IMG/VR virus record: IMGVR_UViG_2693429635_000010
Strand: one strand, 5' to 3'
DNA: 16,972 bases
Source of the DNA: a virus
Taxonomy: Duplodnaviria > Heunggongvirae > Uroviricota > Caudoviricetes
The position numbers and the translations under genes were made by a program. This document shows, one piece after another, positions 1-16,090 of the stretch (position 1 is the stretch's first letter; each line of letters starts with the position of its first letter). The notes beneath the pieces were generated by a model. It did no database searches. It saw nothing but the letters and a program-made list of their open reading frames with translations, and had not been told where the DNA came from.

Positions 1-815
1 CTGCCACCATGGCACTGCGCGTTAAACACGGAGAGGTCAGCACGAAACTGTGTCAGCATGGCTGTAAACAGCGCAGGTTGCTGTGCGTGGGTGGTGGCGC
101 TCATGTCAAACTCTCCCTGCATCCAGCACACCGCCAGCAACACATTTTTCGGGTTCTTCTGTAATGCAGCTTTGGTGCGCGCAATCAGGTCCTGATATAA
201 CGGTTTACCCACACCCCAGCGTGCCGAATCCTGGCTGGCCCCCGTGTCTGCACTGAATGTCCCCTCAGCGCCCTGGGTGAATGCAGAACCACCACGACAG
301 CATGGTACCAGCAGGATCCCCGCGTTATTCGGGATATACGGAAGCAGTTTTTTGGCAATATGTAAGCCCTGGCCGACACAGCCGTACTGCCCTTTGCTCA
401 GGTCTGCCTTCGGATGATTCAGCGTACTCATATCCTGCACATCATGCAGACAGTGGTCAGCCGGGATGATGTCGTTATACGTACAACTCTCTCCACCCGG
501 AGTTACCGTGCTGCGGCGCGCCAGCTGTTTAATGCGCGGATCCGGAGCATCGTAAGAATCCGGTAACGGAAGCCCTTCACCGTAGGCCATGCCGTTGGAC
601 TGTCCGGCAAGCACAACCACATAGAACCAGTCCGGCTCAGATGAAGGGCCGACCTGTGGATCTCCTTCAATAGCCACCGCCTGCATCAGTGTGTACGGCG
701 TAATGGCAACCGGTCCGCCATATGGCTGCCAGCCCTCTTTCAGTTTGTGTGTCAGCTTTTCCGCAAGGTCTGACGGCGACGCCGCCCTGACAACATCATA
801 GTGTTTAAATGCCAT
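1..815 (-). CDS. Sialate O-acetylesterase-like protein (NanS-p family: DUF1737-like N-terminus plus SGNH/SASA esterase domain); N-terminal ~271 codons only, 3' end runs off the left window edge
   Basis: Hand translation of the minus strand from ATG at 813-815 (GGGAGG 4 nt upstream) is open to position 1: MAFKHYDVVRAASPSDLAEKLTHKLKEGWQPYGG...VVLAGQSNGMAYGEGLPLPD... The GQSN block is the SASA/SGNH esterase signature. Absent from the ORF track because no stop codon lies inside the window. Confidence 0.6.
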   Translation of the reverse strand, partial: MAFKHYDVVRAASPSDLAEKLTHKLKEGWQPYGGPVAITPYTLMQAVAIEGDPQVGPSSEPDWFYVVVLAGQSNGMAYGEGLPLPDSYDAPDPRIKQLARRSTVTPGGESCTYNDIIPADHCLHDVQDMSTLNHPKADLSKGQYGCVGQGLHIAKKLLPYIPNNAGILLVPCCRGGSAFTQGAEGTFSADTGASQDSARWGVGKPLYQDLIARTKAALQKNPKNVLLAVCWMQGEFDMSATTHAQQPALFTAMLTQFRADLSVFNAQCHGG

Positions 816-1008
816 GAATCCTCCCGGCCGGGATAATATTGTGAGTAAAATGAGGAGCGGGCTGAAGTCCGGAAGTTACAGGACAATGGCAGAAGAGAGA
901 CAACAGCCCGCAATACGAAAAAGGCCGCGCTATTGCGCAGAGTGATTACTGTCGGATATTATTCGCCAGCTGAAATATTACTTCACGTTTTGTTGTTTAT
1001 TCCTTGCC

Positions 1009-1037
1009 GCCCGCGTCTCCCTGCGCGGGCTTTTTTT
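1009..1037 (+). terminator. Rho-independent terminator oriented on the plus strand
   Basis: Perfect 7-bp GC-rich stem GCCCGCG (1009-1015) / CGCGGGC (1024-1030), 8-nt loop, followed by TTTTTTT (1031-1037). On the minus strand the hairpin is preceded, not followed, by the run, so it acts only on rightward transcripts. Confidence 0.5.
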
Positions 1038-1040
1038 GTC

Positions 1041-1068
1041 CATAAGAAAGCCCCTCCGGAGAGGGGCT
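1041..1068 (-). terminator. Possible minus-strand terminator hairpin
   Basis: Perfect 8-bp stem AGCCCCTC / GAGGGGCT (1049-1068) with 4-nt loop; on the minus-strand RNA it is followed by UUCUUAU. The U tract is interrupted, so weaker than the others. Confidence 0.3.
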
Positions 1069-1263
1069 GGAGAGTGGCGCTATGTGCCATTGCATGGTGC
1101 CGGGTGCCTCCCGGTGAATTCAGTACCAGCACCTGAATCCGCGATTATCCCATATACCTACTCGCTGATTGCCCCTCCGCACAGGGGGATTCACCATGCC
1201 AGTTTCTTTTAACAAACTCCCCGCAAACCAGACAACAGTCAACCGCCTGAATTGTGAGACATT

Positions 1264-1290
1264 TAAAAAAAAGGCCCGCAAAAGCGAGCC
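1264..1290 (-). terminator. Rho-independent terminator immediately 3' of the tRNA cluster
   Basis: Minus-strand RNA GGCUCGC-UUUU-GCGGGCC (7-bp stem with one G-U pair) followed by 8 U (plus-strand A run 1265-1272); 14 nt downstream of the tRNA-Arg 3' end. Confidence 0.55.
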
Positions 1291-1304
1291 AGGGAAAATA
1301 AGTG

Positions 1305-1381
1305 TGGCGCGTTGTACTGGATTCGAACCAGTGACCGATTGCTTAGAAGGCAATTGCTCTGTCCGGCTGAGCTAACAACGC
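1305..1381 (-). tRNA. tRNA-Arg (anticodon UCU)
   Basis: 77-nt cloverleaf read by hand on the minus strand: acceptor GCGTTGT/ACAACGC, D arm GCTC...GAGC, anticodon stem ATTGC/GCAAT with loop CTTCTAA, T arm ACTGG-TTCGAAT-CCAGT, discriminator G, encoded CCA. Position matches the argO-type tRNA of lambdoid late regions. Confidence 0.85.
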
Positions 1382-1394
1382 ATGATGCAGATAA

Positions 1395-1471
1395 TGGACC
1401 GCCATCGGGGACTTGAACCCCGCGCAGCCAGCTTCGAAGGCTGGCGCTCTTTCCTGATGAGCTAATGGCGG
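1395..1471 (-). tRNA. tRNA-Arg (anticodon UCG as read from loop CTTCGAA)
   Basis: 77-nt cloverleaf on the minus strand: acceptor CCGCCAT/ATGGCGG (7 bp), D arm GCTC...GAGC, anticodon stem CCAGC/GCTGG, T arm CGGGG-TTCAAGT-CCCCG, discriminator T, encoded CCA. Unusual C1-G72 first pair. Confidence 0.75.
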
Positions 1472-1478
1472 TATGTGA

Positions 1479-1554
1479 TGGTGGCCCTTGCTGGATTTGA
1501 ACCAGCGACCTGGCGATTATGAGTCGCTCGCTCTCACCACTGAGCTAAAGGGCC
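1479..1554 (-). tRNA. tRNA-Ile2 (anticodon CAU, lysidine type; ileZ-like; a plain CAU reading would be tRNA-Met)
   Basis: 76-nt cloverleaf on the minus strand: GGCCCTT acceptor, D arm GCTC-AGTGGTGA-GAGC, anticodon loop CTCATAA, T arm GCTGG-TTCAAAT-CCAGC, AAGGGCC-A-CCA. Closely resembles E. coli ileX/ileY as I recall them. Confidence 0.8.
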
Positions 1555-1603
1555 GGAAGCAGAATAATAATGGTGCGTAATTAATTCTGCAATCTCATCC
1601 GTT

Positions 1604-2533
1604 TCAAACGATTAAATCCTGAACTTCCCTGACTGTCTGCTCAAAACGTCCGGTCTCCAGCTCAACACCAATCGCACGACGCCCCAGTGCCATCGCCGCT
1701 TTTACCGTTGAACCCGACCCCATGAAAAAATCCGCAACCAGATCACCAGGACGACTACTTGCGCTGATTATCTGCTGCAGCATTTCTGCCGGTTTTTCGC
1801 ACGGATGTTTCCCGGGATAGAACTGCACCGGTTTATGTGTCCACACATCCGTGTACGGCACCTGCGCCGTCACACCAAAATACCGCCGCAGATGCTTATA
1901 TTCACTCTGCAGCTCCACATACTGCCGGTTCAGTGACGTATACGTATCCACCAGCTGGTGGTGGGGCTTTTCCAGTTCACCGCGCTGATGTTTCTCTTCT
2001 GCCACCCGGGCAAACAGCGACTGTAATTTCAGATAATCGCTTTCGTTCGGTAGCTGCCACTGACTGGCACTGAACCAGTGCGACACCATGTTTTTCTTTC
2101 CTGTGGCATCTGCAATCTGTTTTGCCGTTATCCCCAGGGCCGCGCGCGCATCACGAAAGTAAGAAATCAGCGGGGCCATCACATGCTGTTTCAGTGCACT
2201 GCCCTTCGCCGCATACCCGGCATCTTTCGGACGATACGGCCCCTGATAATGTTCCGCGAACAGAATGCGCTCTGTGACGGGGAAATACGCCCGCAGGCTT
2301 TCCTTGTTGCATCCGTTCCAGCGTCCGGACGGCTTCGCCCAGATAATATGGTTCAGCACACTGAAGCGTTCACGCATCATGATTTCGATATCAGATGCCA
2401 GGCGATGACCACAGAACAGGTAAAGACTTCCGGCAGGTTTCAGCACCCGCCAGAACTGCGCCAGACACTGGTCCAGCCACTTCAGGTAATCATCGTCGCC
2501 CTTCCACTGGTTATCCCAGCCCTCAGGCTTCAC
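1604..2533 (-). CDS. DNA methyltransferase (beta-class N6-adenine/N4-cytosine type); 5' boundary uncertain, the DPPY motif lies upstream of the first canonical start codon
   Basis: ORF-track protein ends with motif I (HPCEKP...DFFMGSGST). Extending the frame 5' by hand gives stop-LINADCLEFIRSLPENSVDLIVTDPPYFK-V(GTG at 2531-2533), so catalytic motif IV (DPPY) is in frame but has no ATG/GTG/TTG ahead of it. Confidence 0.6.
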   Translation of the reverse strand: MKPEGWDNQWKGDDDYLKWLDQCLAQFWRVLKPAGSLYLFCGHRLASDIEIMMRERFSVLNHIIWAKPSGRWNGCNKESLRAYFPVTERILFAEHYQGPYRPKDAGYAAKGSALKQHVMAPLISYFRDARAALGITAKQIADATGKKNMVSHWFSASQWQLPNESDYLKLQSLFARVAEEKHQRGELEKPHHQLVDTYTSLNRQYVELQSEYKHLRRYFGVTAQVPYTDVWTHKPVQFYPGKHPCEKPAEMLQQIISASSRPGDLVADFFMGSGSTVKAAMALGRRAIGVELETGRFEQTVREVQDLIV

Positions 2534-2790
2534 TTTAAAGTACGGCGGGTCCGTGACTATCAGGTCAACAGAATTTTCGGGTAACGACCGGATAAATTCC
2601 AGGCAGTCGGCGTTGATTAACTAACAACTGGATATTTTTACAGTATTAAGCATGGATCATTAAGCCTGTCTCTGATAGGCTCATTCTGCTTTTGCGCAAA
2701 GCAGTGGGCCTGAGGTTTGCTTGTGAACCCAACGCATGAGCAGATGGCTGGTGGGTGCCCCTAACACCTACCAGCCGCCCATTTACCACA

Positions 2791-2817
2791 AATAAAAAAG
2801 CCTTTACTGCGGAAGGC
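2791..2817 (-). terminator. Putative rho-independent terminator overlapping the stop codon of the small ORF
   Basis: Minus-strand RNA GCCUU-CCGCAGUA-AAGGC (5-bp stem, 8-nt loop containing the UAA stop) followed by UUUUUUAUU. Confidence 0.4.
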
Positions 2818-3001
2818 GTCTGTAACAACCGAACTGATAGTCTGCCAGACCCGCCATAACCAGCTGGGTCAGTATTAACTGGCAGCGTTCGCGTGAAAGG
2901 TAAGTATTCTGCGCAATCTCCCCGACTGTCGCCGGGTCGGTAACGCTTAATTCATTAAACACCACTCTGGCGGTTTCTGTCATATCCTGCTGTTTTAGCA
3001 T
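2804..3001 (-). CDS. Small hypothetical protein (65 aa), possible helix-turn-helix DNA-binding protein
   Basis: Internal ATG of track ORF 2804..3124 with AGGGA ~8 nt upstream: MLKQQDMTETARVVFNELSVTDPATVGEIAQNTYLSRERCQLILTQLVMAGLADYQFGCYRRLPQ. The track's longer N-terminal extension is hydrophobic low-complexity and overlaps the tR'-like terminator. Sits between two terminators. Confidence 0.4.
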   Translation of the reverse strand: MLKQQDMTETARVVFNELSVTDPATVGEIAQNTYLSRERCQLILTQLVMAGLADYQFGCYRRLPQ

Positions 3002-3124
3002 GTCTTTTTCCCTTTTCCGGTTAACGTGACACACCAATAACTCTTGTCGAAAAAGCCAGCAAGCTGAAAGAACGGTATTAATAACCACCAGCGAATTTAT
3101 TGCGCTGCTGTATATTACGGACAC

Positions 3125-3146
3125 AAAAAAACCACCTTCCGGTGGC
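3125..3146 (-). terminator. tR'-like rho-independent terminator ~100 nt downstream of the Q gene
   Basis: Minus-strand RNA G-CCACC-GGAA-GGUGG followed by 7 U (plus-strand A run 3125-3131). Position relative to Q mirrors the lambda pR'/tR' (6S RNA) layout. Confidence 0.55.
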
Positions 3147-3242
3147 TTCCTTGTGCGAAAAAACTTGCATTTCGCCTCGCGATACAGCTTTGCGAAGCTT
3201 ACAGGAATTCAAGCTGTTTCTGCGTAAAAAAGCAAGCTTTTT
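3147..3242 (-). promoter_or_regulatory. Putative late promoter (pR'-like) and Q-utilisation region between the Q stop codon and the tR'-like terminator
   Basis: Positional inference from lambdoid architecture only; several TTG.../TA...T hexamers are present on the minus strand but none could be fixed confidently by eye. Confidence 0.3.
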
Positions 3243-3785
3243 TTATCGAAATGAATCGTGCATAGGTACATAAAGCATGTGTTCAGCCACGGCTAACCAA
3301 CCTGCAATACGTTTCTCACATGTGCTGAAACACCATTCCGGGTGAGTACGATTTAAACATTCTGCCATTTTTCTCTTACTCATTCCCCGTCCTTCGTACC
3401 TTTGCCGGAGAATATTGATTAGCCCGGGATATTCCCCAAGCACCTCACTGATAACGCGATCAATAATCAACGCCTCTGTGTCTGTACAATGTGACAACCA
3501 GCTCTTCTGCTTCCCTCTGGTCATATCCCGAAAAAATGCCTCAAGTTCCGGTTTTTCCAGCCCGGATTTCTTCATGCTGCGTAAAACCTCATTAACTGCT
3601 GTTTTCGTCAGCTTTTTCGAAACCAGTAACCGGTTAAACATATTTCCGGATTTACCCCCACCGATATACGACCACCGCCCCCACATCCGTAATTTCCCCT
3701 GGATCCAGACTGCTTCCAGCGTGTTCAGGCGTAAATGTTCGCCGCTTTTGCCTGTAATTTCCGGATATATCATATTTACGCTCAC
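3243..3785 (-). CDS. Late-gene antitermination protein Q (phage 21/82-type Q family)
   Basis: 180-aa ORF directly downstream of rusA with overlapping stop/start (GTGA), followed by the tR'-like terminator; N-terminal LRMWGRWSY motif resembles the ERWGAW motif I recall from QuuD-type Q proteins. Confidence 0.55.
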   Translation of the reverse strand: MSVNMIYPEITGKSGEHLRLNTLEAVWIQGKLRMWGRWSYIGGGKSGNMFNRLLVSKKLTKTAVNEVLRSMKKSGLEKPELEAFFRDMTRGKQKSWLSHCTDTEALIIDRVISEVLGEYPGLINILRQRYEGRGMSKRKMAECLNRTHPEWCFSTCEKRIAGWLAVAEHMLYVPMHDSFR

Positions 3786-4141
3786 TCACTCTCAATTTTG
3801 TAAATCTTCACACCCAGCCGTCCACCAGATACTGGCTGACCACGTACAATATTGATTTCATCAAACTGCTCGTCATCAATGAGCACTCCCGCATGCGTCA
3901 GCGCATCCAGCGGTGCTTTCAGAATATTGTCCAGGTCACGACGACGCTTATCCGGTGGCTCTGCAATAATTTTTATTGCCAGCCGTCCGGACAGGCTTAA
4001 TTTCAGTCGCTGCTGGCGAACAATAAGCGCCACTGCCCGGCGATAACGCTCCCCGGCTTTTGATACAAAATATGTGCTGCCACGACGTCGCCAGTAAGTG
4101 TTCACTGTCGGCGGGTAAGGTAAAACCAAATCTATGAGCAT
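3782..4141 (-). CDS. rusA: Holliday-junction resolvase RusA
   Basis: 119-aa ORF with strong RBS (AGAGGTG, 5-nt spacer). Motifs LPYPPTVNTYWRRRG and RRRDLDN...DALTHAGVLIDDEQ match the RusA family as I recall the E. coli K-12 sequence. Confidence 0.8.
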   Translation of the reverse strand: MLIDLVLPYPPTVNTYWRRRGSTYFVSKAGERYRRAVALIVRQQRLKLSLSGRLAIKIIAEPPDKRRRDLDNILKAPLDALTHAGVLIDDEQFDEINIVRGQPVSGGRLGVKIYKIESE

Positions 4142-4153
4142 CAGTCACCTCTT

Positions 4154-5200
4154 TTACCCGAGCACGCCAGTCGCAAAGGCGTGATCAAGAAAACGAAAAA
4201 TTAACTCAATCTGAGAGCCGTACTTTTTCTCAAACTCCAGCGGGTCTGCATGAAGTTCGTTGTGGTGCTCCCGGCACAACGGTAACGTGAAAATATCGTG
4301 GGCCTTTGTCCCCATTCCCCCCTGACCATGACCAATCAGGTGATGCGGATCGTCAGCAGGCTTACCACAACACGCACACGGCTGTGTCTTCACCCAGCGC
4401 GTGTATTTCTCGTTAACCCAGCGGCGACGTTTAGGTCGTTTCATGAAAGATTCCGGAGACTCAGGATCAACGGCAATGCTGACCACCGTCTTTTCCTGTG
4501 GCGGGTTTTGCTGGTGGGCGTGAGGCAGCGGCGCAAGATTTTTTGTGCGCTGCTTCAGTATGCTGGTGGCGGTCTGCTCTCCCGGTACGATGTCGCTTTC
4601 ACGGTACATTGAGCGGATTTTTTCCGCACGCAACCCCAGCGAACGACGTAATACCGCTTCCGGTAGCGCGTCCGCCACCTGATTGCGGACCGCCCACCAG
4701 GATAATTCAGCCAGAGATAATTCCCGTTCCTGTGCACCACTTATTGCGTGACGTATGACGTCAATCATCCAGGCTGTCAGATTTTGTTGAGCAAGCTGCC
4801 CGAGTGATTCGGATGTCTGGTCGCGCAGCTGGTTGTCGCAGTGCCAGCACAACACCATTGCGCCGGTACCATAACGGTGAATGACGGTTTCACTGTGGTG
4901 ATAATCACCGTGTGGCCACTGGCAGGATTTAACATGGCGCAGTAACCAGTCAGACAATGCGCCAGCGCCACCAGCAGCACGAATCACTCGTTCGTCGCTG
5001 AAAAATGGCAGTAATGATTTATCCTCCGCCAGCGGCTGGCGAACGGCAGGAACGACCCCGGACGGCAGATTACGCATGCTTTTCGGTTCCGGCTCCACCA
5101 GTACCCGGGTATTGTGGAATACCGGCATGGATTCACGGCCCGGCTTAACGATCACCAGCCCGAGTTCCGGTACCAGAACAGGTCGAAGTAATACCCGCAC
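4154..5200 (-). CDS. DUF968-like (YdfU-like) nin-region protein with C-terminal Cys/His motif
   Basis: 348-aa ORF with GTG start and GGAGG 5 nt upstream; C-terminus carries CACCGKP...HHLIGHG...LCREHHNELH, a zinc-finger/HNH-like signature. Size and position match the DUF968 proteins of lambdoid prophages. Confidence 0.55.
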   Translation of the reverse strand: MRVLLRPVLVPELGLVIVKPGRESMPVFHNTRVLVEPEPKSMRNLPSGVVPAVRQPLAEDKSLLPFFSDERVIRAAGGAGALSDWLLRHVKSCQWPHGDYHHSETVIHRYGTGAMVLCWHCDNQLRDQTSESLGQLAQQNLTAWMIDVIRHAISGAQERELSLAELSWWAVRNQVADALPEAVLRRSLGLRAEKIRSMYRESDIVPGEQTATSILKQRTKNLAPLPHAHQQNPPQEKTVVSIAVDPESPESFMKRPKRRRWVNEKYTRWVKTQPCACCGKPADDPHHLIGHGQGGMGTKAHDIFTLPLCREHHNELHADPLEFEKKYGSQIELIFRFLDHAFATGVLG

Positions 5201-5201
5201 G

Positions 5202-5480
5202 TTACCTCCAGATGCGTTGCTGGAATGTGCGGGACGGACGCGGTGGTCGTTCGGAGTAAGGAAGCCTGACGGAGATTATCCAGTGACGATAATCGAGGCT
5301 GAGGGCTTTCTTAATCTCGTATCCGTGTCTGCGGTAGCACTGAATTAGCCACTCGGCCTGTTCTTCAGTGCATGGGGGATGCTGGAACCAGTCAGATTTG
5401 AAAGTGCGGGAACGCCGCCCGTGCCTGCTGGCAGGGGCGGCAGAGTTATCCGAATTGTAAAATTTGGTATCGTGCGCCAT
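5202..5480 (-). CDS. Hypothetical nin-region protein (92 aa), paralogue of 10055..10333
   Basis: Internal ATG of track ORF 5202..5609: MAHDTKFYNSDNSAAPASRHGRRSRTFKSDWFQHPPCTEEQAEWLIQCYRRHGYEIKKALSLDYRHWIISVRLPYSERPPRPSRTFQQRIWR. About 80% identical to the copy-B paralogue, supporting a real gene; weak RBS. Confidence 0.45.
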   Translation of the reverse strand: MAHDTKFYNSDNSAAPASRHGRRSRTFKSDWFQHPPCTEEQAEWLIQCYRRHGYEIKKALSLDYRHWIISVRLPYSERPPRPSRTFQQRIWR

Positions 5481-5549
5481 CTGTTTTCTCTGCTGGCGCA
5501 GCAGGTGCCAGTTGTTCAGGCTGACGGATGGATTGTAAACCAGAACGAC

Positions 5550-5579
5550 CAGAAAAAACAAAACCCGCCGAAGCGGGTT
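5550..5579 (-). terminator. hok mRNA 3' terminator
   Basis: Minus-strand RNA AACCCGC-UUCG-GCGGGUU followed by UUUUGUUUUUU (plus-strand A-rich run 5551-5561). Confidence 0.5.
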
Positions 5580-5647
5580 AAGTGCGGGTGCGTTGAGGAT
5601 GCCTGACACATCAGAGGTGGCGAGGGATTTCTCCCCCGCCAGGTCTC

Positions 5648-5803
5648 TTACTCCTCAGGTTCGTAAGCTGTGAAGACAGCGACCTCCGTCTGGCCGGTTC
5701 GGATTCGTACCTCGCAGAGGTCTTTCCTCGTTACCAGTGCCGTCACTATGACGGTTAAACAGATGACGATCAGGGCGATTAACATCGCCTTTTGCTGCTT
5801 CAT
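5648..5803 (-). CDS. hok: Hok-family type I toxin (51 aa, HokD-like)
   Basis: MKQQKAMLIALIVICLTVIVTALVTRKDLCEVRIRTGQTEVAVFTAYEPEE, embedded in track ORF 5648..5860; matches the Hok/Gef consensus, and I recall HokD (RelF) of E. coli as identical. Confidence 0.85.
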   Translation of the reverse strand: MKQQKAMLIALIVICLTVIVTALVTRKDLCEVRIRTGQTEVAVFTAYEPEE

Positions 5804-5993
5804 AGCCTGCTTCTCCTTGCCTTTCGGCACGTAAGAGGCTAACCTACATTTGTGAGACATAGATTGGGCCTCAGATTAATGTTAAGCGTCTTGCAGGACG
5901 CGTAATGTTAACTGGGGCTTTTCTCTATCTGCCTTTTGGTGTTCATGCCTGAGACAGATAGCCTCAAGCACCCGCAGCAATTCTACTTAACTC
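5804..5993. promoter_or_regulatory. hok mRNA leader (mok / fold-back region) with the expected antisense Sok RNA gene on the plus strand
   Basis: Established hok/sok architecture. An inverted repeat CTATCTG...CAGATAG is visible near 5925-5958. Sok promoter and ends were not mapped. Confidence 0.4.
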
Positions 5994-6049
5994 TCCTTTT
6001 CCCGCAAACCGTTTTTACCCGATATGGGAATTCCCATATCGTAATGAAT

Positions 6050-6154
6050 TCAGTTCCCTAGTCGATCCATCAAAAACACAACCAGGCAGTAAACGCCCAC
6101 AACAGCAACAACAGCCAGCGCACCTTCCATTGCCAGTGATATATCATCCGACAT
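6050..6154 (-). CDS. Small hydrophobic peptide (34 aa, single predicted TM helix), not in the ORF track
   Basis: Hand translation: GGAGGGAAT-ATG then MSDDISLAMEGALAVVAVVGVYCLVVFLMDRLGN-TGA. A diverged homologue sits at the same relative position beside the second hok locus (11159..11248). Confidence 0.35.
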   Translation of the reverse strand: MSDDISLAMEGALAVVAVVGVYCLVVFLMDRLGN

Positions 6155-6269
6155 ATTCCCTCCTTTGGTGTTAATCCCGGCGAACGTTTTTACCCCCACC
6201 GACAAATAACATATACTAAAAAAGCGATAGCCATAGCAACGCCTGTAATTGCAAATGCTTCAGGCCAGT

Positions 6270-7139
6270 TCATTGGCGCACCTCCTGCGGCGGTTCTGGT
6301 AGCGGCATCCAGTGTGACGGTTTCCACGACGCACCAGGAATTATCCACCCATCATTAGCGTCAGGATGACCCGGGATGTAAGTCGCCCATTTCATTCGCC
6401 AGTCACCTTTCCTGTCAAACTCCACGGCAACAAGAACGGCTGTTTTGGTATCCGGCATTCGCTCACTACAGCTTATCCAACTATCCGGAGTTACCGGATA
6501 GTTGCCCGATAGTGCATTCTGCTCCAGTGATGCTTTTACAAACCACGCTGCCTGAACTATAACGCCATGAATCCAGCGCAAATCAGCATCGCGATCTTTC
6601 TTTTTCATCTTTTCGCCACTTAAGGCCTTGCTTATGTGGCTGCGTACCAGGTCTTCATGTAATTCCTTCGCCTCCTCAATGGTGAAACCACCAGGCAGAA
6701 GAGCCGGAGTTACCGGAGAGCTGGTTGACGCTTCCGGGATTTTCCGAAAATTATTGGTTGACGAATCTTTATTTTCCCGAAAGTTTCCGGACTGAAGCAT
6801 GGCTTCGCGGCAATCGTTCCAGCCTGTAGCGTATGCAGCCGCTTTGCTGCTGCCTTCAACTGGCGCATCCTGCCAATACATTTCTTCCGGCACTATCGGC
6901 GCTGGAGGGGCGGCAAATAGATATCCGCCAAAGTCAGGAAGCTCTCTAATGGCCTGTACGAATTTTTGTTTGCCTACGTCAACCCCTAATGGGTAATGAG
7001 CTATAATCTTTGCCACCGGCTCTGCTTCCAGCGATGCCAGCGCAATCCGTGCCAGTTCCATTTGTTCACCACGGGTAAGCCCGTTTTCAACCGGATTTTT
7101 AATGAACAATTCAATACGTTCTTTGGTAATAGTGGTCAT
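6270..7139 (-). CDS. Hypothetical protein with DUF551-like C-terminal domain
   Basis: 289-aa ORF with RBS AAGGAG (7-nt spacer). C-terminus WISCSERMPD...GDWRMKWATY...WMPLPEPP resembles the DUF551 signature of lambdoid prophage accessory proteins. Confidence 0.5.
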   Translation of the reverse strand: MTTITKERIELFIKNPVENGLTRGEQMELARIALASLEAEPVAKIIAHYPLGVDVGKQKFVQAIRELPDFGGYLFAAPPAPIVPEEMYWQDAPVEGSSKAAAYATGWNDCREAMLQSGNFRENKDSSTNNFRKIPEASTSSPVTPALLPGGFTIEEAKELHEDLVRSHISKALSGEKMKKKDRDADLRWIHGVIVQAAWFVKASLEQNALSGNYPVTPDSWISCSERMPDTKTAVLVAVEFDRKGDWRMKWATYIPGHPDANDGWIIPGASWKPSHWMPLPEPPQEVRQ

Positions 7140-7149
7140 GTGTTACTCC

Positions 7150-7413
7150 TTAACCCGCAGTGCTTTCAACTGATGAGGGGAACAAAATCTTTTCATCAAA
7201 CCCTGCATTCATATCATGAACAGCAACACACCAATCCATCGACGAACGATTATCAAGAGCCTCCATGATTTCATCCATGCGGCGTAGGTCATACAGGTAA
7301 ATGCTTTTATCGCCAATGGTGTAAAAGCCAATTTTTTTCGGTGATGGACAGCGATCAAGAACTTCCTGTAATTCGTTTAACCATGCCCGTTCTTTTTTTG
7401 TCAAAGTTGCCAT
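7150..7413 (-). CDS. Hypothetical protein (87 aa)
   Basis: Internal ATG at 7411-7413 of track ORF 7150..7503, with AAGGA 8 nt upstream: MATLTKKERAWLNELQEVLDRCPSPKK... The track's longer start lacks an RBS and would overlap the upstream gene. Confidence 0.5.
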   Translation of the reverse strand: MATLTKKERAWLNELQEVLDRCPSPKKIGFYTIGDKSIYLYDLRRMDEIMEALDNRSSMDWCVAVHDMNAGFDEKILFPSSVESTAG

Positions 7414-7414
7414 A

Positions 7415-7633
7415 TCAGTTTTCCTTATACGGATTAATTTTATTGTGCAGTGTGTTGAACGACGCCCATACAACGTCGGTATACAATTCAGTAACTGGCT
7501 CAATTATTTTCCCGATTGCCCAGACAAAAATTAGAGGGGATATCGGTATCATCAATACGATAAACAGAATGAGAAACAAAAATTCTGTCGACCTACTTTT
7601 TTGCGGATATTCTTTTCTGAATAATGTAGTCAT
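7415..7633 (-). CDS. Hypothetical small membrane protein (72 aa)
   Basis: Track ORF with hydrophobic core FLFLILFIVLMIPISPLIFVWAIG; tightly packed between neighbouring minus-strand genes; RBS weak. Confidence 0.35.
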   Translation of the reverse strand: MTTLFRKEYPQKSRSTEFLFLILFIVLMIPISPLIFVWAIGKIIEPVTELYTDVVWASFNTLHNKINPYKEN

Positions 7634-7665
7634 TTCTTACCGCCCTTTCGGGCGGCCTCCCGACA

Positions 7666-7878
7666 TTAATCGTTGTGGTAACTCATGGCTTCATTTGCAG
7701 CATCAACCGGATCAACCTCCCACCAGCAATAATTTGGTGCGTTTCCTTCAGGTGTCCACGGTTCTAATTCATTTTTTGCCACATTCCCATCGCCAGTAAT
7801 TTTAAAAATCTGCTCAGAGAATTTTCTTGCCCACTCGTTATATTTTTCCGCATTAATGGCTTTCTGTGTATTTAACAT
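7666..7878 (-). CDS. Hypothetical protein (70 aa)
   Basis: Track ORF with RBS GGAGG 8 nt upstream of the ATG. Confidence 0.5.
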   Translation of the reverse strand: MLNTQKAINAEKYNEWARKFSEQIFKITGDGNVAKNELEPWTPEGNAPNYCWWEVDPVDAANEAMSYHND

Positions 7879-7983
7879 AAATATACCTCCAGTTAAGGAT
7901 TAAATTTTATTTACAGTGCTGAACTTAATTATTCAGATTTGGATTATGCTTTCTCTTCACGAAGTTCCGATTGTTAATTTGGC

Positions 7984-8406
7984 TCACAACAGCACCTTCT
8001 GAAAATTACCCTGATAGAAAGCCAGTACACGCTGCATAGCTTCGCTCTTCCGGCACTCGCTACAGATTATGTTCAGACGCCTGTCGTAGCGGCGTATTTC
8101 TCCGTCTGGTAATGACCAGATAAGATCCGGATCAACCACAGATGGTTTCTTCACCTTTGCCCTAGATAGTTTTTTGCGGGCATTTTGCCAGTCCTTACGA
8201 GCCTGTTCAGACGGGAATAACCCGTAACCAGAGTTGTATACATCGCCACTGGCAACCAGCTCTCTGGCGAGAACGCTCATCAGATATCTTGTCGCACCTG
8301 TCCTGGCTTCCAGTTGCCGTAACGTCTCGCGCCCACTCCGGCGTACTAGTTCAACAACCTGCCCTTTAATTTTTTCCCGCTCTTCTTGTGTAAATACTTT
8401 TGCCAT
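7984..8406 (-). CDS. Hypothetical protein (140 aa), paralogue of 15628..16050
   Basis: ATG at 8404-8406 with GGAGG 6 nt upstream (the track's TTG start at 8421 would overlap the RBS): MAKVFTQEEREKIKGQVVELVRRSGRETLRQLEARTGATRYLMSVLARELVASGDVYNSGYGLFPSEQARKDW...; ~90% identical to the right-hand copy. Confidence 0.55.
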   Translation of the reverse strand: MAKVFTQEEREKIKGQVVELVRRSGRETLRQLEARTGATRYLMSVLARELVASGDVYNSGYGLFPSEQARKDWQNARKKLSRAKVKKPSVVDPDLIWSLPDGEIRRYDRRLNIICSECRKSEAMQRVLAFYQGNFQKVLL

Positions 8407-8421
8407 AAGCGCCTCCGGCAA

Positions 8422-9192
8422 TCACTTTTCCGATACAACACGGCGGGAAGAATCAGTAATCTGTCGAACAATATCCCGGTGCTTGTTCAGCTCCCGCAGC
8501 GCGGCGCAGACTCGCTCCCACTTCTGAACATCACTTTTCGCCCTGCGCAGCGCCAGGTTTGCCCTGCGAAGGGACGGAAAAATCAGCTCATCTGCTTGCG
8601 TTTCGGTAAACGATGGCAACGGCTGCACAATGTCCGCCACAGTTTCTGTTTTAATTTCTTCCTGTGTTGCGGCTTCCCGGACTGGTAACGCAGCACCTGC
8701 TGGCTGAGGAAAGGCCTTACCATCACTTTCCGTTACCAGCGCGGCTTTCGGCTCTGCTGGTAAATTATCGCCCGGCATGCAGTAACGAAATTTACCGTTC
8801 TGATTAACGCGTGCCAGCCGCCCCGTTGCGGTTACCACCGCCAGCGTGGAAGCAACCTTGCGAGTACTGACACCGAACTTACCCGCCAGTTCCTCACACG
8901 TTTTAGCCCCATCCTGACCGATAAACTCAATCATCATGTCTGCGGTAACTTTTTGTTCGACCTCCCCGGTCAGCATATCCTGTGCTTCAGATTTTACTGG
9001 CCGCTCTTCGGTTACCCGGGATTCACCTTCGCCAGCCAGAAACCAGGTGTGACCAGTTTTATCAACGACGCCATTTCTTTTGAGTTCCCACAGCTCGTTG
9101 ACAGCCTCTTCACGACTGATTCCAAGGCTGGCCGCCACTACCTGTGAAGAGGCTCTTTTCAGTGCTTTCAGTGCGTCAAATACGGTTTCCAT
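8422..9192 (-). CDS. Hypothetical protein (256 aa) with winged-helix-like N-terminus
   Basis: ATG at 9190-9192 with GGAGG 8 nt upstream (track uses an upstream TTG at 9210). N-terminus METVFDALKALKRASSQVVAASLGISREEAVNELWELKRNGVV suggests a DNA-binding fold. Confidence 0.45.
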   Translation of the reverse strand: METVFDALKALKRASSQVVAASLGISREEAVNELWELKRNGVVDKTGHTWFLAGEGESRVTEERPVKSEAQDMLTGEVEQKVTADMMIEFIGQDGAKTCEELAGKFGVSTRKVASTLAVVTATGRLARVNQNGKFRYCMPGDNLPAEPKAALVTESDGKAFPQPAGAALPVREAATQEEIKTETVADIVQPLPSFTETQADELIFPSLRRANLALRRAKSDVQKWERVCAALRELNKHRDIVRQITDSSRRVVSEK

Positions 9193-9225
9193 TAATATTT
9201 CCTCCGACAAAATCGTTTCTCAGAT

Positions 9226-9888
9226 TCAAATAAAACCAGCTGCCTTCCGGCGTTCGTATTCCTGTTTCAGCCGTTCAATTGGCGTTGGCCCTTGCGGGTG
9301 TTTCGCCCCTTCCAGTTGTCGTCGCACTGGCGGAACACTCATCCCGTTACCAACATGCTTTGCCCATTTCGTCAGTTGCCGTTCCGCAAGTCGTTTTAAC
9401 TCACCCTGCGTCATCTGGCGCTCAATCCCTCTGGTACGCATTTCGAGGCAGATGTGGTACAGCACAGGCTGTGGCCACGGGTATTTATCACTCCCGTCGT
9501 ATCGCCAGGATTCATTGCGCCAGCGCCGGTACTCTTCCATCACTGCATCCACCGTAAGACCAAATGGATTTGCCCCACTCTCCGAAATCAGTGCAACAAA
9601 CTCAGCCAGGTCCGGGGGCCACGTTTCACCCGCCCGGCAGCGGTCCATGCACTGACGGCAGACCAGCCGGATTTGCTGTTCAGTCATCGCGCCAATCTGG
9701 GCAATCCAGAGCTTCGAAGGTGCGGCCCCGTTCTTCTGTGTCCAGCGGTTCGAATACACCTCCCCCATAAGCTCCCACAGCTTCCAGGCCGTTTCCGTTG
9801 CTGATAAATCCGTTGTCACGTTCCCACTGTTCGCGTGCTGCCCGGATTTCCTGAACTGCCCGTGATGCCGTGCCACCTGATGCTGCAT
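9226..9888 (-). CDS. Replication protein P-like (lambda P family, helicase loader)
   Basis: 220-aa ORF with RBS AAGGGGG 5 nt upstream. The blocks TEQQIRLV...TWPPDLAEFVALISE and VDAVMEEYRRW...YPWPQPVLYHICLEM...TQGELKRLAERQL...VPPVRRQL resemble lambda P as I recall it. No O-like gene lies directly upstream. Confidence 0.5.
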   Translation of the reverse strand: MQHQVARHHGQFRKSGQHANSGNVTTDLSATETAWKLWELMGEVYSNRWTQKNGAAPSKLWIAQIGAMTEQQIRLVCRQCMDRCRAGETWPPDLAEFVALISESGANPFGLTVDAVMEEYRRWRNESWRYDGSDKYPWPQPVLYHICLEMRTRGIERQMTQGELKRLAERQLTKWAKHVGNGMSVPPVRRQLEGAKHPQGPTPIERLKQEYERRKAAGFI

Positions 9889-9891
9889 GGC

Positions 9892-10053
9892 TTACCCCCT
9901 TGCTGACTGGTTAGACGGCAGATTACGCATGCTTTTCGGTTCCGGCTCCACCAGTACCCGGGTATTGTGGAATACCGGCATGGATTCACGGCCCGGCTTA
10001 ACGATCACCAGCCCGAGTTCCGGTACCAGAATAGGTCGAAGTAATACCCGCAC
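9892..10053 (-). pseudogene. Truncated 5' fragment of a DUF968-family gene (53 codons), recombination remnant
   Basis: GTG at 10051-10053 opens a frame encoding MRVLLRPILVPELGLVIVKPGRESMPVFHNTRVLVEPEPKSMRNLPS, nearly identical to the N-terminus of the 4154..5200 protein; it then diverges at the repeat boundary (9913/9914) and stops after 7 further codons, just upstream of the P-like gene. Confidence 0.5.
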
Positions 10054-10054
10054 G

Positions 10055-10333
10055 TTACCTCCAGATGCGTTGCTGGAATGTGCGGGACGGACGCGGTGGG
10101 CGTTCGGAGTAAGGAAGCCTGACGGAGATTATCCAGTGACGGTAGTCGAGGCTAAGGGCTTTTTTAACCTCGTATCCGCGCCTGCGGTAACACTGAATTA
10201 TCCATTCAGCCTGCTCTTCAGTGCATGGTGGATGCTGGAACCAGTCCGATTTGAATGCATGAAAACGCCGTCCGCACCTGCTGGCAAAGACGGCAGAATC
10301 ATCAGAATTGTGTAATTTGGTATCGTGCGCCAT
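10055..10333 (-). CDS. Hypothetical nin-region protein (92 aa), paralogue of 5202..5480
   Basis: Internal ATG of track ORF 10055..10444: MAHDTKLHNSDDSAVFASRCGRRFHAFKSDWFQHPPCTEEQAEWIIQCYRRRGYEVKKALSLDYRHWIISVRLPYSERPPRPSRTFQQRIWR. Confidence 0.45.
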   Translation of the reverse strand: MAHDTKLHNSDDSAVFASRCGRRFHAFKSDWFQHPPCTEEQAEWIIQCYRRRGYEVKKALSLDYRHWIISVRLPYSERPPRPSRTFQQRIWR

Positions 10334-10694
10334 CGGTTGTCTCTGCTGGCGCAGCAGGTGCCAGTTGTTCAGGCTGGCGTATAAAGTATAAATAAACTGG
10401 TTCCAGTGTAAAGCCCCTACATTAATGGAATAAAAGTCAAACAACAGATTGTTGGGATAAACACAACGCTTATTATTAAAAGCGATTAGATAAATTAAAT
10501 TTTAATGTTATGCAATTTTACCAGATCACCATAACATCTCGTTTGAAACCACCGAAACAACAACCATATCAATATTGATTATGTTAAAGTGAGTAAATAT
10601 GGAAAACAACAAATCTGCACATTACGCTCCTTTTTTATCTGTGATACTTTTTGTTTTATGCTGTGTGTGGGCATTATTTTTATAAAAATATTTA

Positions 10695-10723
10695 CAGATA
10701 AAATAAACCCGCCGAAGCGGGTT
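10695..10723 (-). terminator. hok mRNA 3' terminator (second copy)
   Basis: Same AACCCGC-UUCG-GCGGGUU hairpin as at 5562-5579, followed on the minus strand by UUUAUUU. Confidence 0.45.
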
Positions 10724-10791
10724 AAGTGCGGGTGCATTGAGGATGCCTGACACATCAGAGGTGGCGAGGGATTTCTCCCTCGCCGGGTCTC

Positions 10792-10947
10792 TTACTCCTC
10801 AGGTTCGTAAGCTGTGAAGACAGCGACCTCCGTCTGGCCGGTTCGGATTCGTACCTCGCAGAGGTCTTTCCTCGTTACCAGTGCCGTCACTATGACGGTT
10901 AAACAGATGACGATCAGGGCGATTAACATCGCCTTTTGCTGCTTCAT
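10792..10947 (-). CDS. hok: Hok-family type I toxin (51 aa), second copy
   Basis: Encodes the same 51-aa protein as 5648..5803, embedded in track ORF 10792..11004. Confidence 0.85.
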   Translation of the reverse strand: MKQQKAMLIALIVICLTVIVTALVTRKDLCEVRIRTGQTEVAVFTAYEPEE

Positions 10948-11136
10948 AGCCTGCTTCTCCTTGCCTTTCGGCACGTAAGAGGCTAACCTAGATTTGCCGT
11001 TCATAGATTGAGCCTCAGATTAATGTTAAGCGTCTTGCAGGACGCGTAATGTTAACTGGGGCTTTTCTCTATCTGCCGTTGGTGTTCATGCCTGAGACAG
11101 ATAGCCTCAAGCACCCGCAGCCATTCTACTTAACTC
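10948..11136. promoter_or_regulatory. hok mRNA leader / expected antisense Sok region (second copy)
   Basis: Near-identical to 5804..5993. Confidence 0.4.
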
Positions 11137-11158
11137 CCGTCACCTCGCCAATATGAAA

Positions 11159-11248
11159 TCAGTCAGAAAGGCGATCCATAAGAACAACAGCAAGGCAATA
11201 AATTGCCATTACAGCAGCAATAGCCAGCGCACATTTGAGAACCAGCAC
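11159..11248 (-). CDS. Small hydrophobic peptide (29 aa), homologue of 6050..6154, not in the ORF track
   Basis: AGGAGG then GTG (5-nt spacer): (M)LVLKCALAIAAVMAIYCLAVVLMDRLSD. Shares the A-rich hydrophobic core and LMDRL C-terminal motif with the copy-A peptide; lies in a different frame from the Cys-rich track ORF 11163..11471. Confidence 0.3.
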   Translation of the reverse strand: MLVLKCALAIAAVMAIYCLAVVLMDRLSD

Positions 11249-11544
11249 CACAACCTCCTGTATTGGACGTACACCAGTCCTGATAAATATGAGGCTGTCT
11301 CGTCAGTGATTCAATACAACTATTGGGTATAGTTTCTGTGATTTTGTTCTGTAGAAATGGAACACAACAACCAGTCACCACCAGCACTTCTTTAAATACG
11401 CCAAGTCCGACGCAAGCTAACCTTCTAGGCCGCTTTGAGCGAAGAGCGGACGCTCGCATCTGTCCCAACACACTGAGGGCTTCACGAACACCTAGGTGTA
11501 CTCGTCAACTGGGAAAAAGTCAGATTATCTGCGTAAGTTTCAGC

Positions 11545-11572
11545 GTAAAAATTGGGCACTATAAAAGTGCCC
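11545..11572 (-). terminator. Rho-independent terminator 3' of the large NTPase gene
   Basis: Minus-strand RNA GGGCAC-UUUUAUA-GUGCCC (6-bp stem) followed by AAUUUUUA, starting ~25 nt after the TAG stop at 11596-11598. Confidence 0.5.
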
Positions 11573-11595
11573 AAACTGTAGAAAAATACATAATG

Positions 11596-14500
11596 CTATG
11601 TATCTGAGCCAAACATAGAGCGCCGCCTTGTTATTTTATAATAAGTGGGATTTTCATTATCCACCTCAAAATCAGAGAAGAAGTGGTTATCTCTTAATGC
11701 TGTTAATAAACTTTGATTAGTTGAATCAACTTCAATTTTAGGTTTGCCTCGCCCCAAAATTTTACTGAACTCCGATAAACCAAGCAGATCAAGATACTCT
11801 TTGCAAGTCGTCTTACTCAAATCCTTACCCGGCAACAAAGCGATTAGCAGTGCTATTTTATTCTGCATATTCAGTCCCTCTGCGACAAACAGGTTTTTTA
11901 GTAACGGTTCAGAAACATCATTAGGACTTGCTATCAATGCTGATATATCCTGTATTGCTCGACTCAAGATGAGCGACTGAGTAGAGGTTCCCCAAGTTTT
12001 ATAAGATGACGTCAAGATTAGAAGTTCATCTGGTTTAAAATTATTTTCTAAAATATAGTCATTAACGACCTGAGAGTAATTCTTACTATAAATAGCCAAC
12101 GGAGTTTTAACAAACTCGAGTAGCTTAACTTTCAAATCATCATCAACTTTCCAAGAAAGTATTGATATAGCCTCATCCAAAATAAAGTTATCAATCGTCA
12201 TTAATTCAACGTATGCCCTGATATTCTTATGAATATAATAGGAAAGTTGCTCTGAATAGTTATCTCGTATGAAATTAAGTGGCGCAACATTCATACGAAT
12301 AATATTTTTATCCACTAATATTTTGAACTTATCACTCGCGATATCACTAGCGCTAAAGGATGTTTTACAAATAATATTTAGTGAGCAAATTAATTTTTCA
12401 TATTTATCATTTGATAAATCATTACAGATAACAATCGATTTAAATAATTTACCTTTAAGCTCGTTATCAATATTAATATTTTGAAAATTCAGGTCTACAT
12501 CAGTTCTATTGATAAATTCGATAAGTGAGTCATCCAGTCCATCAACATGTTCAAAATAAGAGACAATATTTTCCTCAGAGCACACTGCTCTATCTTTATC
12601 CAACAAAGATGACCATAAAGATTCGCTCTCAACCTCACTCAGAGATGTCACGAAAGTTTGCAAAGCGTTTATATACTGGCCTTTTTGTTCATCAGATATT
12701 CCCTCATTATTAAGAACGGATAAAACAATGGATTCATCATCCACGATTGAACCATCACAACTAGATAAAACCATATCCAGATAGTCCCTAATATGGTTAT
12801 TAACATAACTAGCCAAGGGAGAATCAGGTTGTGACATCACTAGTGTATAGTTCTTATGGCGAATATCATCTTCACTATTAAGCGTGTAAACCTTACTCAG
12901 CATTAAGGTCAGGTTGGAAAAATTAATATCATAAAGTGAATGCTGGTAAACCGCATCAAAGAGTACTTTATTTGCGTTTTCAAATTTAATACTGACAAAA
13001 GAGACGTTAAGCAACTTAAAACCACTAATTAATTTGTCAACCTTTGGTTCTGATATTGCTAAATAACCTGCCGAATCAGAGATGTAATCAGTCAGACAAT
13101 CATCAATATTAATGGCCTCGATGGCGTCATTGGCAGAATAATAAAACGTGCCTATAGAGTAGAGTTTAACCCAATCAGCAGAAAATTCACTCTCTGTCAG
13201 CGCATAAGAAAAAAACTCAGGCCACTGTGTATTTAATCGATTAATGAAGACAGGCTGAGCCCTCTCAGTTTCAAAGTAACCACGAATAAACTCAACTCTT
13301 CTATCTTTTCTTAGTTGTTTGAATAAACGTTTTATTAAGTTTACCAGGGCTGGCGTTTGAAGCAGATAAGCTAATAAATCAAAATTAAGCGCCTCTTCCT
13401 GTTCAAAATCCACTTCTCGAAGGCGGGCAACGACCAGCTTGGGGTTCTTGAGTTGATAAGTGAACTCTTTGCCTTTTTGATCGGTAATGCTGCGTAAAAA
13501 CATCTTATCAATTCGACTCAGGCTATTTTCATAAAAATAGGTCATATAGTCGGTATAGGTTTCATCAATATAACCATCACGAATAAGGTATTTAAGCAAG
13601 TCAAAATACTCACTGCTTTTTATTTCATTAAAGTCTCTTTCCTCTCCAATTTCATTGGTATAGGTGAGTTTAAATATTTCATCAATGTTTTCTCTAGTTA
13701 TTACTTCTTTAAGTCTTTTGTTTCTAGAATCAACCAAACTTTCTCTTGATCTTGATATAAGCTCATTAATTTCTTCTATTTTACCATTAAATTTATTTTC
13801 AACACTTTCTTTTCTAGCCGCCCTTCTCTTTGCTATATCAGCTTTCTCAGCCTGATTATAGTGAGGATGATTATTATATCTAGATAATTCCTTATCGTAT
13901 ATAGCATCAACCTCCTGACTAGAGTTGAGTATTTCATCATTGATTGCCTCAATCTCTTTTTTTCTATCTCTAATATCTTTTTCTATTTTCTTTATTTCTT
14001 CAATAATAAGGTTGTCTTTTTCACTAAATATGGTATAAACCATACCTTGATTAAGTTGCAACTCACTAAAATCTCTTGGGAAAATATTCTTATAGGCAAT
14101 AATGGCCAACATTTTATTACAGTCAAGTTCTGTCGTGTTTAATTTGTTATAATAAATTTGAAATTCGTTATAAATATTCTTCAATATTCTCATATCATCA
14201 ATATATAAAGACATCCCTTGTAGAAATCTTTCATTGAACAACTTGAGAATACCACCACCATCAAAATGTGTGATAAACTGATCGTAAGAGTTAGAACTAT
14301 CAACAACAGGAATAACTGGAATGATATAATCAAAGAATTTGGTTCTATCCTTCGAAATGAAGATATCATCACGAAGCAAGTAAATAAAACGTAACGTCGA
14401 TTTCTTGTGCCCTGCTGTGTCCCGTTGAATATTAACCAGTCTGTTAACCTCATGAAGACGTTCAAAGATGTTATTACTATTAAAACGGTCCATGTCTTCA

Positions 14501-15228: not shown

Positions 15229-15309
15229 TGATATCCCTTCCCAATCTTCACCGAGAGAGCTGGCTTTCGGAGTTAATCAAACAAAATCATGCAGATAAAA
15301 TTTCGCCTT

Positions 15310-15345
15310 ATTATAGCAGACACAACTGCAAAGATTAGCTAAAGC
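15310..15345 (-). promoter_or_regulatory. Putative promoter of the NTPase gene (extended -10 type)
   Basis: Minus-strand TGcTATAAT (hexamer complementary to 15310-15315, TG complementary to 15317-15318), ~85 nt upstream of the start codon; no convincing -35, as is typical for extended -10 promoters. Confidence 0.35.
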
Positions 15346-15627
15346 CTCGTTGTTTTCTTCATCTATCCCTATAATTTTACACTACAGTTAGCACTTACTA
15401 TACCTGAAAGCTTTGCTCGTAAAGAGCACAATCGCAAGTCAGCAAAGCACGACTTTGCAATCGAGCGCCGCTAAAACAGTGCTGAATCGCTACGACTTAG
15501 GCAGCCATCTTATCGGTTGGCAGATAATTTCTAACTTCCGCTTCTGGCACAAAGCGGACAACCACGATAGCTCTATCCTGTGCCACAAAATGTCAATTCA
15601 CATCTTAACTAATGCATTTTAATCTCG

Positions 15628-16050
15628 TCACTTTAATAAATACCGAACATTCCCCTGATAAAACGACAATATGCGCTGCATAACTTCGCTTTTACGACAC
15701 TCAGTACAAATTATATTATGATGCCTGTCGTAACGACGTATTTCTCCATCAGGTAATGACCAGATAAGGTCCGGATCAACCGCAGATGGTTTCTTCAGCT
15801 TTGCCCTTGAGAGCTTTTTACGGGCATTTTGCCAGTCCTTACGCGCCTGTTCAGACGGGAATAACCCGTAACCAGAATTGTATACATCACCGCTGGCAAC
15901 CAGCTCTCTCGCGAGAACGCTCATCAGATATCTTGTCGCACCTGTCTTGACTTCCAGTTGTCGTAACGTCTCACGCCCACTCTGGCGTACGAGTTCAACA
16001 ACCTGCCCTTTAATTTTTTCTCGCTCTTCTTGTGTAAATACTTTTGCCAC
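15628..16050 (-). CDS. Hypothetical protein (140 aa), paralogue of 7984..8406
   Basis: GTG start with AGGAGG 4-5 nt upstream: MAKVFTQEEREKIKGQVVELVRQSGRETLRQLEVKTGATRYLMSVLARELVASGDVY... Confidence 0.55.
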   Translation of the reverse strand: MAKVFTQEEREKIKGQVVELVRQSGRETLRQLEVKTGATRYLMSVLARELVASGDVYNSGYGLFPSEQARKDWQNARKKLSRAKLKKPSAVDPDLIWSLPDGEIRRYDRHHNIICTECRKSEVMQRILSFYQGNVRYLLK

Positions 16051-16090
16051 AAGTCCTCCTGAAAATTACCTCATGACCTGAAATAAACAC

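Follow-up and report, generated by a model that had tools for sequence, protein, structure and literature searches.

Probable scaffolding artefact behind two hokD-rem-ydfU modules placed in series in a lambdoid prophage sequence

The virus record IMGVR_UViG_2693429635_000010 (Caudoviricetes), a stretch of 16,972 nucleotides analysed here over its full length and referred to as the window, carries two copies of a lambdoid prophage module composed of a hok/mok/sok locus, a rem-like gene and the 5' end of ydfU. Copy A lies at 5061-5993 and copy B at 9914-11136, and all genes of the window are on the minus strand. The initial annotation took the two copies for diverged direct repeats within one mosaic or hybrid prophage. 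The window is the whole of record CXZY01000049.1 from the draft assembly GCA_001283525.1, which was reached through a look-up of a 53-aa open reading frame (ORF) specific to the junction, and base-by-base comparison gives a single difference between the two: position 9913 is A in the window and N in the record. Because 9913 is N, the window consists of two contigs (1-9912 and 9914-16972) set end to end, and because this N directly abuts copy B on its left, the collinearity of the two copies is not read-derived. A literature search on the accession gave nothing relevant. The N is shown directly, as are the match of each part to one or the other of two intact prophages and the lack of this junction in other sequences; from these findings we infer that the join at 9913 is probably false and that the 'hybrid prophage' is a scaffolding artefact. 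Most probably the tandem layout is not real.

Comparison with complete related prophages, a check that the initial annotation had proposed, traced the parts of the window to two sources. These are prophage X, adjacent to rspB, which we take to be the Qin integration site, and prophage Y, at the potC site. The right contig (9914-16972; 7,059 bp) is 100% identical to X in strains CD45, 19AR0254, MB06102 and others and represents its early side, with 140 bp of the 5' end of ydfU, the rem-like gene, an AT-rich spacer, hok/mok/sok, a Tmn-like YobI NTPase, a DUF977 gene and part of a replisome organiser. The left contig (1-9912) begins with the late side of X (1-4814) and continues with the early side of Y (4907-9912). 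Positions 1-4906 have two mismatches to X of CD45, and 4815-9912 differ by two bases from Y of DCE7 and also by two from Y of 19AR0254; copy A has no mismatch to Y of DCE7. When 4,853 bp (5060-9912) are taken out of the window, what is left is the intact X of CD45 with four mismatches in 12,119 bp. Strain 19AR0254 has complete versions of both X and Y, ~540 kb apart and in opposite orientation, and CD45 has the same two-prophage layout with a Y-type copy at 97.8%. The two copies are 92-96% identical mutually, yet each finds a 100% match in a prophage elsewhere, a different one for each copy, and because of this they are not each other's closest relatives. The blocks adjoining them are unrelated, being DUF1627 and P on the Y side and the Tmn-like NTPase on the X side. 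Judged by sequence identity, the lambdoid early regions from which copies A and B stem are related but not the same. Of the earlier proposal that two such regions had been joined, the two distinct sources stand; the joining on one molecule probably does not, its link being a single N at a junction found nowhere else.

The repeats themselves were confirmed by self-BLAST and by a repeat search. The intervals 5061-5529 and 9914-10382 pair in the same orientation at 92.1% identity (469 bp, ungapped, E = 0), as do 5550-5993 and 10695-11136 at 96.4% (444 bp, E = 0). The DUF977 genes, already recognized as paralogous 140-aa genes at 7984-8406 and 15628-16050, account for a third pair at 8001-8409 and 15645-16053 (89.5%), and a weak fourth pair (6044-6126 and 11153-11235) reaches 73%. 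Global alignment of copy A with copy B gives 139 of 140 identical positions for the 5' end of ydfU, 97.2% identity for mok/hok, 97.0% for the sok/leader region and 88.5% for the rem-like 92-aa gene, in agreement with the earlier description of a near-identical repeat start and hok locus and a more diverged 92-aa gene. The longest exact runs between the copies are 205 bp (starting at 5642 and 10786) and 118 bp (5061 and 9914). Copy B does contain the AT-rich insertion that had been described, but the size of ~329 bp given for it is corrected by the alignment to 291 bp net, in two blocks at 10393-10476 (84 bp, GC fraction 0.345) and 10498-10704 (207 bp, GC fraction 0.28). The homology also continues, as had been noticed, into small peptide genes past each repeat, whose hydrophobic products are homologous (...AVVAVVGVYCLVVFLMDRLGN and ...AIAAVMAIYCLAVVLMDRLSD). 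The same pattern is seen between X and Y in finished genomes, where ~540 kb separates them, so the variation in identity from segment to segment is ordinary X/Y divergence.

At the right junction, the window follows Y through 9912 and X from the base after the N, with no shared base at the boundary (left ...CTTGCTGACTGGTT, right GACGGCAGATTACGC...). The left contig stops within the Y-type DnaT-like 'O' gene, with the final 233 bp of that gene present (9680-9912, minus strand); to the right of the N lies codon 47 of the X-type ydfU. The sequence on each side of the N reads ...GCTGACTGGTT / GACGGCAGATT..., where the uninterrupted X sequence is ...GGCAGGAACGACCCCAGACGGCAGATTACGC... and the uninterrupted sequence of the Y-type O gene is ...GCTGACTGGTTTTACCTGTGCCCTGACG.... 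In prophage X, ydfU runs without interruption across the position of the N, with X-specific continuity (...GGAACGACCCCAGACGGCAG...). The first base of the right contig is also that of the 118-bp exact repeat between X and Y, and the N falls on a column that is a single-nucleotide polymorphism (SNP) between them. The preparation of the window appears to have swapped the N for a base, concealing the scaffold join from a reader of the letters alone.

At least eight genomes contain the left contig's final 150 bp (9763-9912) at 100% identity, and a 300-bp probe centred on the junction matches 3,205 genomes, at up to nine places per genome. Among 5,426 complete Escherichia coli genomes and 50,697 phage records, no place is covered by this probe over more than 50% of its length, and the matches all end at the boundary. 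Neither GTDB representative genomes nor JGI metagenomes contain the junction 34-mer with a wildcard base at the N, and in an index of 153 billion genes the junction-specific 53-aa ORF is confined to this contig. The best complete-genome matches to 4800-11400 cover just 5.1 kb of the record, which amounts to a single copy. A genuine duplication or hybrid calls for uninterrupted read-derived sequence across the junction and for the same junction in independent assemblies; what is found is an N at 9913, and no second assembly with the junction in the collections searched. Two further ideas about this boundary were set aside. Microhomology at 9912/9913 was looked for and none was found, a question that is moot once 9913 is known to be N. 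The end of the left contig at 9912 is not a known mosaic boundary either, as other prophages with the same P gene are collinear with Y for ~300 bp further.

A second transition, from X to Y, lies within the left contig. In base-level mapping, the last base discordant with Y is 4814 and the first base discordant with X is 4907, which places the switch in a 92-bp stretch of ydfU (4815-4906, hereafter S1) that is identical in X and Y. S1 is flanked by further X/Y-identical stretches of 122 bp and 118 bp, and the contig is continuous across it, with no N. The join of X late side to Y early side occurs in none of the complete E. coli genomes, where the best full-length match across it reaches 93.9%. 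The assembly may have taken a chimeric path here through the 92 identical bp, or X and Y may really have undergone homologous exchange. The hybrid DUF968 protein that it encodes is uninformative as a marker of S1, since it occurs elsewhere only on a metagenome contig whose prophage is of the ordinary X type and carries X alleles in the synonymous SNP columns. A model in which Y DNA entered X by clean insertion at one point was rejected, as the switch at S1 is about 150-250 bp to the left of the place corresponding to the right junction and the two points do not coincide.

The hokD-rem-ydfU module is ordinary, already known and very common in E. coli; the region is matched in 5,183 of the 5,426 complete genomes, at a median of three places per genome and a maximum of 14. 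The full-length ydfU, which continues from copy A, occupies 4154-5200 (DUF968/HNH-like, 348 aa; PF06147, phrog_96 and annotation), and copy B retains the 140-bp 5' fragment at 9914-10053. The rem-like gene, which carries the label 'rem' in related phage records, lies at 5202-5480 in copy A (phrog_1212, E = 1.6e-35) and at 10055-10333 in copy B. The 70-aa mok frame with its nested 51-aa hok is found at 5648-5860 (hok 5648-5803) in copy A and, as ORFs, at 10792-11004 (hok 10792-10947) in copy B. The copy-A mok frame matches phrog_251 'MokW-like' (E = 7.7e-33), and the copy-A hok matches PF01848; the copy-B hok was outside the gene set of that Pfam search. The two 51-aa Hok ORFs are identical to each other and are annotated as HokD (WP_000813254.1). 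Matches to sok (Rfam RF01794) lie at 5798-5973 with 120.1 bits in copy A and at 10942-11116 with 107 bits in copy B, against a gathering score of 59. Each copy is thus a predicted complete hok/mok/sok locus, in which the Hok ORF, the overlapping mok and the sok leader region are all present.

In copy A, the module is followed downstream by the rest of ydfU, then RusA, then the DUF1133/Q-like gene. The late side of Y has its own RusA (WP_000140011.1) and DUF1133 (WP_000640017.1) proteins. At the loci examined, the order hok, rem-like, DUF968, RusA, Q-like is conserved inside integrated lambdoid prophages (int/xis ... lysis context). It is the same gene order as in the hokD(relF)-rem-ydfU-(rusA)-Q module of Qin-type lambdoid prophages, and HokD, rem and ydfU are annotated in finished genomes and phage records. 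There is no essential difference from the Qin-type module: both hok loci of the window retain mok and a sok match, and X adds the 291-bp AT-rich spacer and, upstream of hok, the Tmn-like NTPase moron.

In the explanation that we favour, the two 'direct repeats' would be equivalent hokD(hok/mok/sok)-rem-ydfU' modules of the two different lambdoid prophages X and Y, and their 4.9-kb spacing on one molecule would be a product of assembly. In most E. coli lambdoid prophages the place of such a module is between the replication/nin genes and RusA/Q. The scaffold would then consist of a shared flank, branch Y, a gap, and a tail of shared sequence with branch X; two near-identical alternatives attached to the same ydfU flank and set in series are the known signature of a false duplication. 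Because the module is so repetitive, breakage or mis-linking in a short-read assembly is plausible here. A primary characteristic listed for false duplications is a gap that separates the copies within a scaffold (PMC9516828), and in the heterotype type (Ko et al., 2022; PMC9516828) there are likewise two diverged versions in series, with the assembly gap exactly between them, each of which is a genuine separate locus. In the present record a gap lies between the copies on one scaffold, and each copy is a separate true locus in 19AR0254 and CD45. The initial annotation had allowed for an assembly chimera of two prophages as the finding that would overturn it, and the N at 9913, together with parts that belong to separate prophages, is largely that finding, short of proof.

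Several points nevertheless weigh against a scaffolding artefact. The published false duplications concern haplotypes of diploid vertebrates, whereas the versions here would be paralogous prophages of a haploid bacterium, and the precedent would carry over by analogy alone. A scaffolder normally needs read-pair support, and the pairs that would have wrongly linked the O-gene end of Y to the ydfU end of X are not reconstructable. A single N is also written for contigs that truly abut when the estimated gap is near 0. In addition, the passage from X to Y in the left contig has no N, and because of this it was built from overlapping reads or k-mers.

The last point leads to the possibility that the switch within ydfU is real and only the join at the N is false. 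This would be a special case of the artefact, in which a reciprocal homologous exchange took place between the rspB-site and potC-site prophages, and it can be entertained tentatively. Such an exchange would invert the chromosome between the two prophages, which are inverted relative to each other in some strains, and the two hok modules would still reside in different, far-apart prophages. The unbroken passage of the left contig through S1, the opposite orientation of X and Y in 19AR0254 and the 92-bp identity of S1, with its identical flanks of 122 bp and 118 bp, are all consistent with it. However, exact stretches of 92-122 bp are also repeats that allow a chimeric path in a short-read graph, the X-late/Y-early join is present in no complete genome, and the right contig halts at the edge of the repeat and does not enter the reciprocal product, the late side of Y. 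The alternative that both joins are real is unlikely in our view. It supposes a very recent hybrid, in which ~5.0 kb of Y, from the 5' end of ydfU to the 3' end of the O gene, was copied or exchanged into X at the Qin site by one homologous crossover in ydfU (4815-4906) and one illegitimate, homology-free junction at 9912/9914. Only 47 codons of the X-type ydfU and the last 77 codons of the Y-type O gene would survive the right junction, and the product would have, in tandem, two partial replication modules along with two hok/sok loci, both intact and 5.1 kb from each other. Lambdoid prophages that share a host are well known to recombine. The scaffolder placed the two contigs adjacent with a minimal gap, the left contig passes S1 gap-free, and the two breakpoints in X are only about 95-185 bp apart, as expected of a single Y-templated repair event.

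The hybrid would resemble mosaic lambdoid prophages that arise by such recombination in having two parental types and a switch point in a conserved gene, ydfU. It differs from them at the second junction, which is unsequenced (N), lacks homology and falls midway in two genes, whereas in known mosaics the joins fall between genes or within shared homology. No read-derived sequence spans this junction, and if it were real, the unique k-mers across it should have let the assembler or a gap-closer merge the contigs. The boundary has no microhomology, and the junction is missing from every other collection searched. The hybrid would also need a rare end-joining event in E. coli, which to our knowledge lacks classical non-homologous end joining. 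Far less credible still is the earlier suggestion that one segment was duplicated within the locus and then diverged, with gene conversion keeping the ends and the hok locus alike. The uneven identity profile along the repeat agrees with it, and nothing else does. Each copy has its own counterpart among extant prophages, at its own chromosomal site, and is identical to it either completely or but for SNPs that lie outside the repeat; because the copies match separate prophage lineages, their divergence predates any event at this locus. With unrelated blocks next to the two copies and the same pattern of divergence between X and Y in finished genomes, this suggestion can be regarded as refuted, and a false join between modules of two prophages is retained as the probable explanation.

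The remaining features of the window belong to the two prophages. In the X late side (1-4814), a fragment of a SASA esterase gene, STnc100, three tRNA genes, a DNA methylase gene, the DUF1133/Q-like gene, RusA and most of ydfU are found. The STnc100 small RNA (Rfam, 138 bits) and the tRNA genes lie downstream of the DNA methylase gene, at 1038-1228 and 1308-1554 (both minus strand). By the annotation of X in finished genomes the tRNAs are Ile, Arg and Arg, the usual cluster of lambdoid late regions. The Y-type nin/early block (5994-9679, minus strand) encodes a 34-aa peptide, DUF551, an 87-aa protein, DUF4014, a 70-aa protein, DUF977 (7984-8406), DUF1627 and replication protein P. The DUF551 ORF (6270-7139, minus strand; 289 aa) is intact in the window, and in the Y prophages of DCE7 and 19AR0254 PGAP calls just a 112-aa DUF551 protein and pseudogene fragments. 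The window has no difference from either Y prophage in this interval, the two mismatches of the 4815-9912 block both being outside it, and because the interval is identical the discrepancy is one of gene-calling, not of sequence. The replication protein P gene is annotated at 9226-9687 (minus strand; 153 aa), and its ORF runs on to 9888. This 220-aa 'P-like' ORF (9226-9888) is an upstream extension by 201 bp in a frame that overlaps O. It was considered as a marker of the junction and rejected, as the long form, likewise overlapping O, is a frequent gene call in ordinary prophages, with hundreds of cases.

The AT-rich 291-bp segment is confined to the X-type module, where it lies upstream of rem and directly downstream of a terminator-like hairpin of hok, and no gene is annotated there in finished genomes. 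Just upstream of each hok is a small peptide gene, at 6050-6154 (minus strand; 34 aa) in Y and at ~11153-11250 (minus strand) in X. The X-type peptide has a C-terminus (...YCLxVxLMDRL..) homologous to that of the Y-type peptide; its gene is unannotated in the finished genomes examined, and neither hydrophobic peptide has a PHROG match. A perfect 22-bp palindrome (6020-6041), seen as an inverted match in self-BLAST, lies inside a 34-bp segment that is found beside copy A only, with the hok locus on one side and the gene for the 34-aa peptide on the other. On the X side, the DUF977 gene at 15628-16050 (minus strand; PF06163) is the counterpart of that at 7984-8406. Between it and hok lies a low-GC island (~11137-15627; GC fraction 0.29-0.37, against ~0.5 in the flanks) that contains the YobI-family P-loop NTPase gene (11596-15228, minus strand; 1,210 aa). 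The protein matches the PADLOC anti-phage defence model Tmn over residues 9-439 (E = 7e-68). It looks like a defence moron that prophage X gained at a point between DUF977 and hok; prophage Y lacks it.

The initial annotation also expected that recombination between the repeats would excise ~4.9 kb. This holds if the hybrid is real: RecA would then recombine the exact stretches of 118 bp or 205 bp, with loss of 4.85 or 5.15 kb and a return to an X-like prophage. The linkage of the copies on which the excision depends is the single N. A real hybrid would be an intermediate of lambdoid mosaicism caught in the act, and a modest example of illegitimate recombination in the making of mosaics. As a false join is the more probable explanation, the window calls chiefly for caution with sequences taken from draft assemblies, which may hold scaffold joins whose N was replaced by a base. 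Where an N has been masked in this way, paralogous prophage modules would pass for a locally duplicated segment, a hybrid phage or a substrate for recombination.

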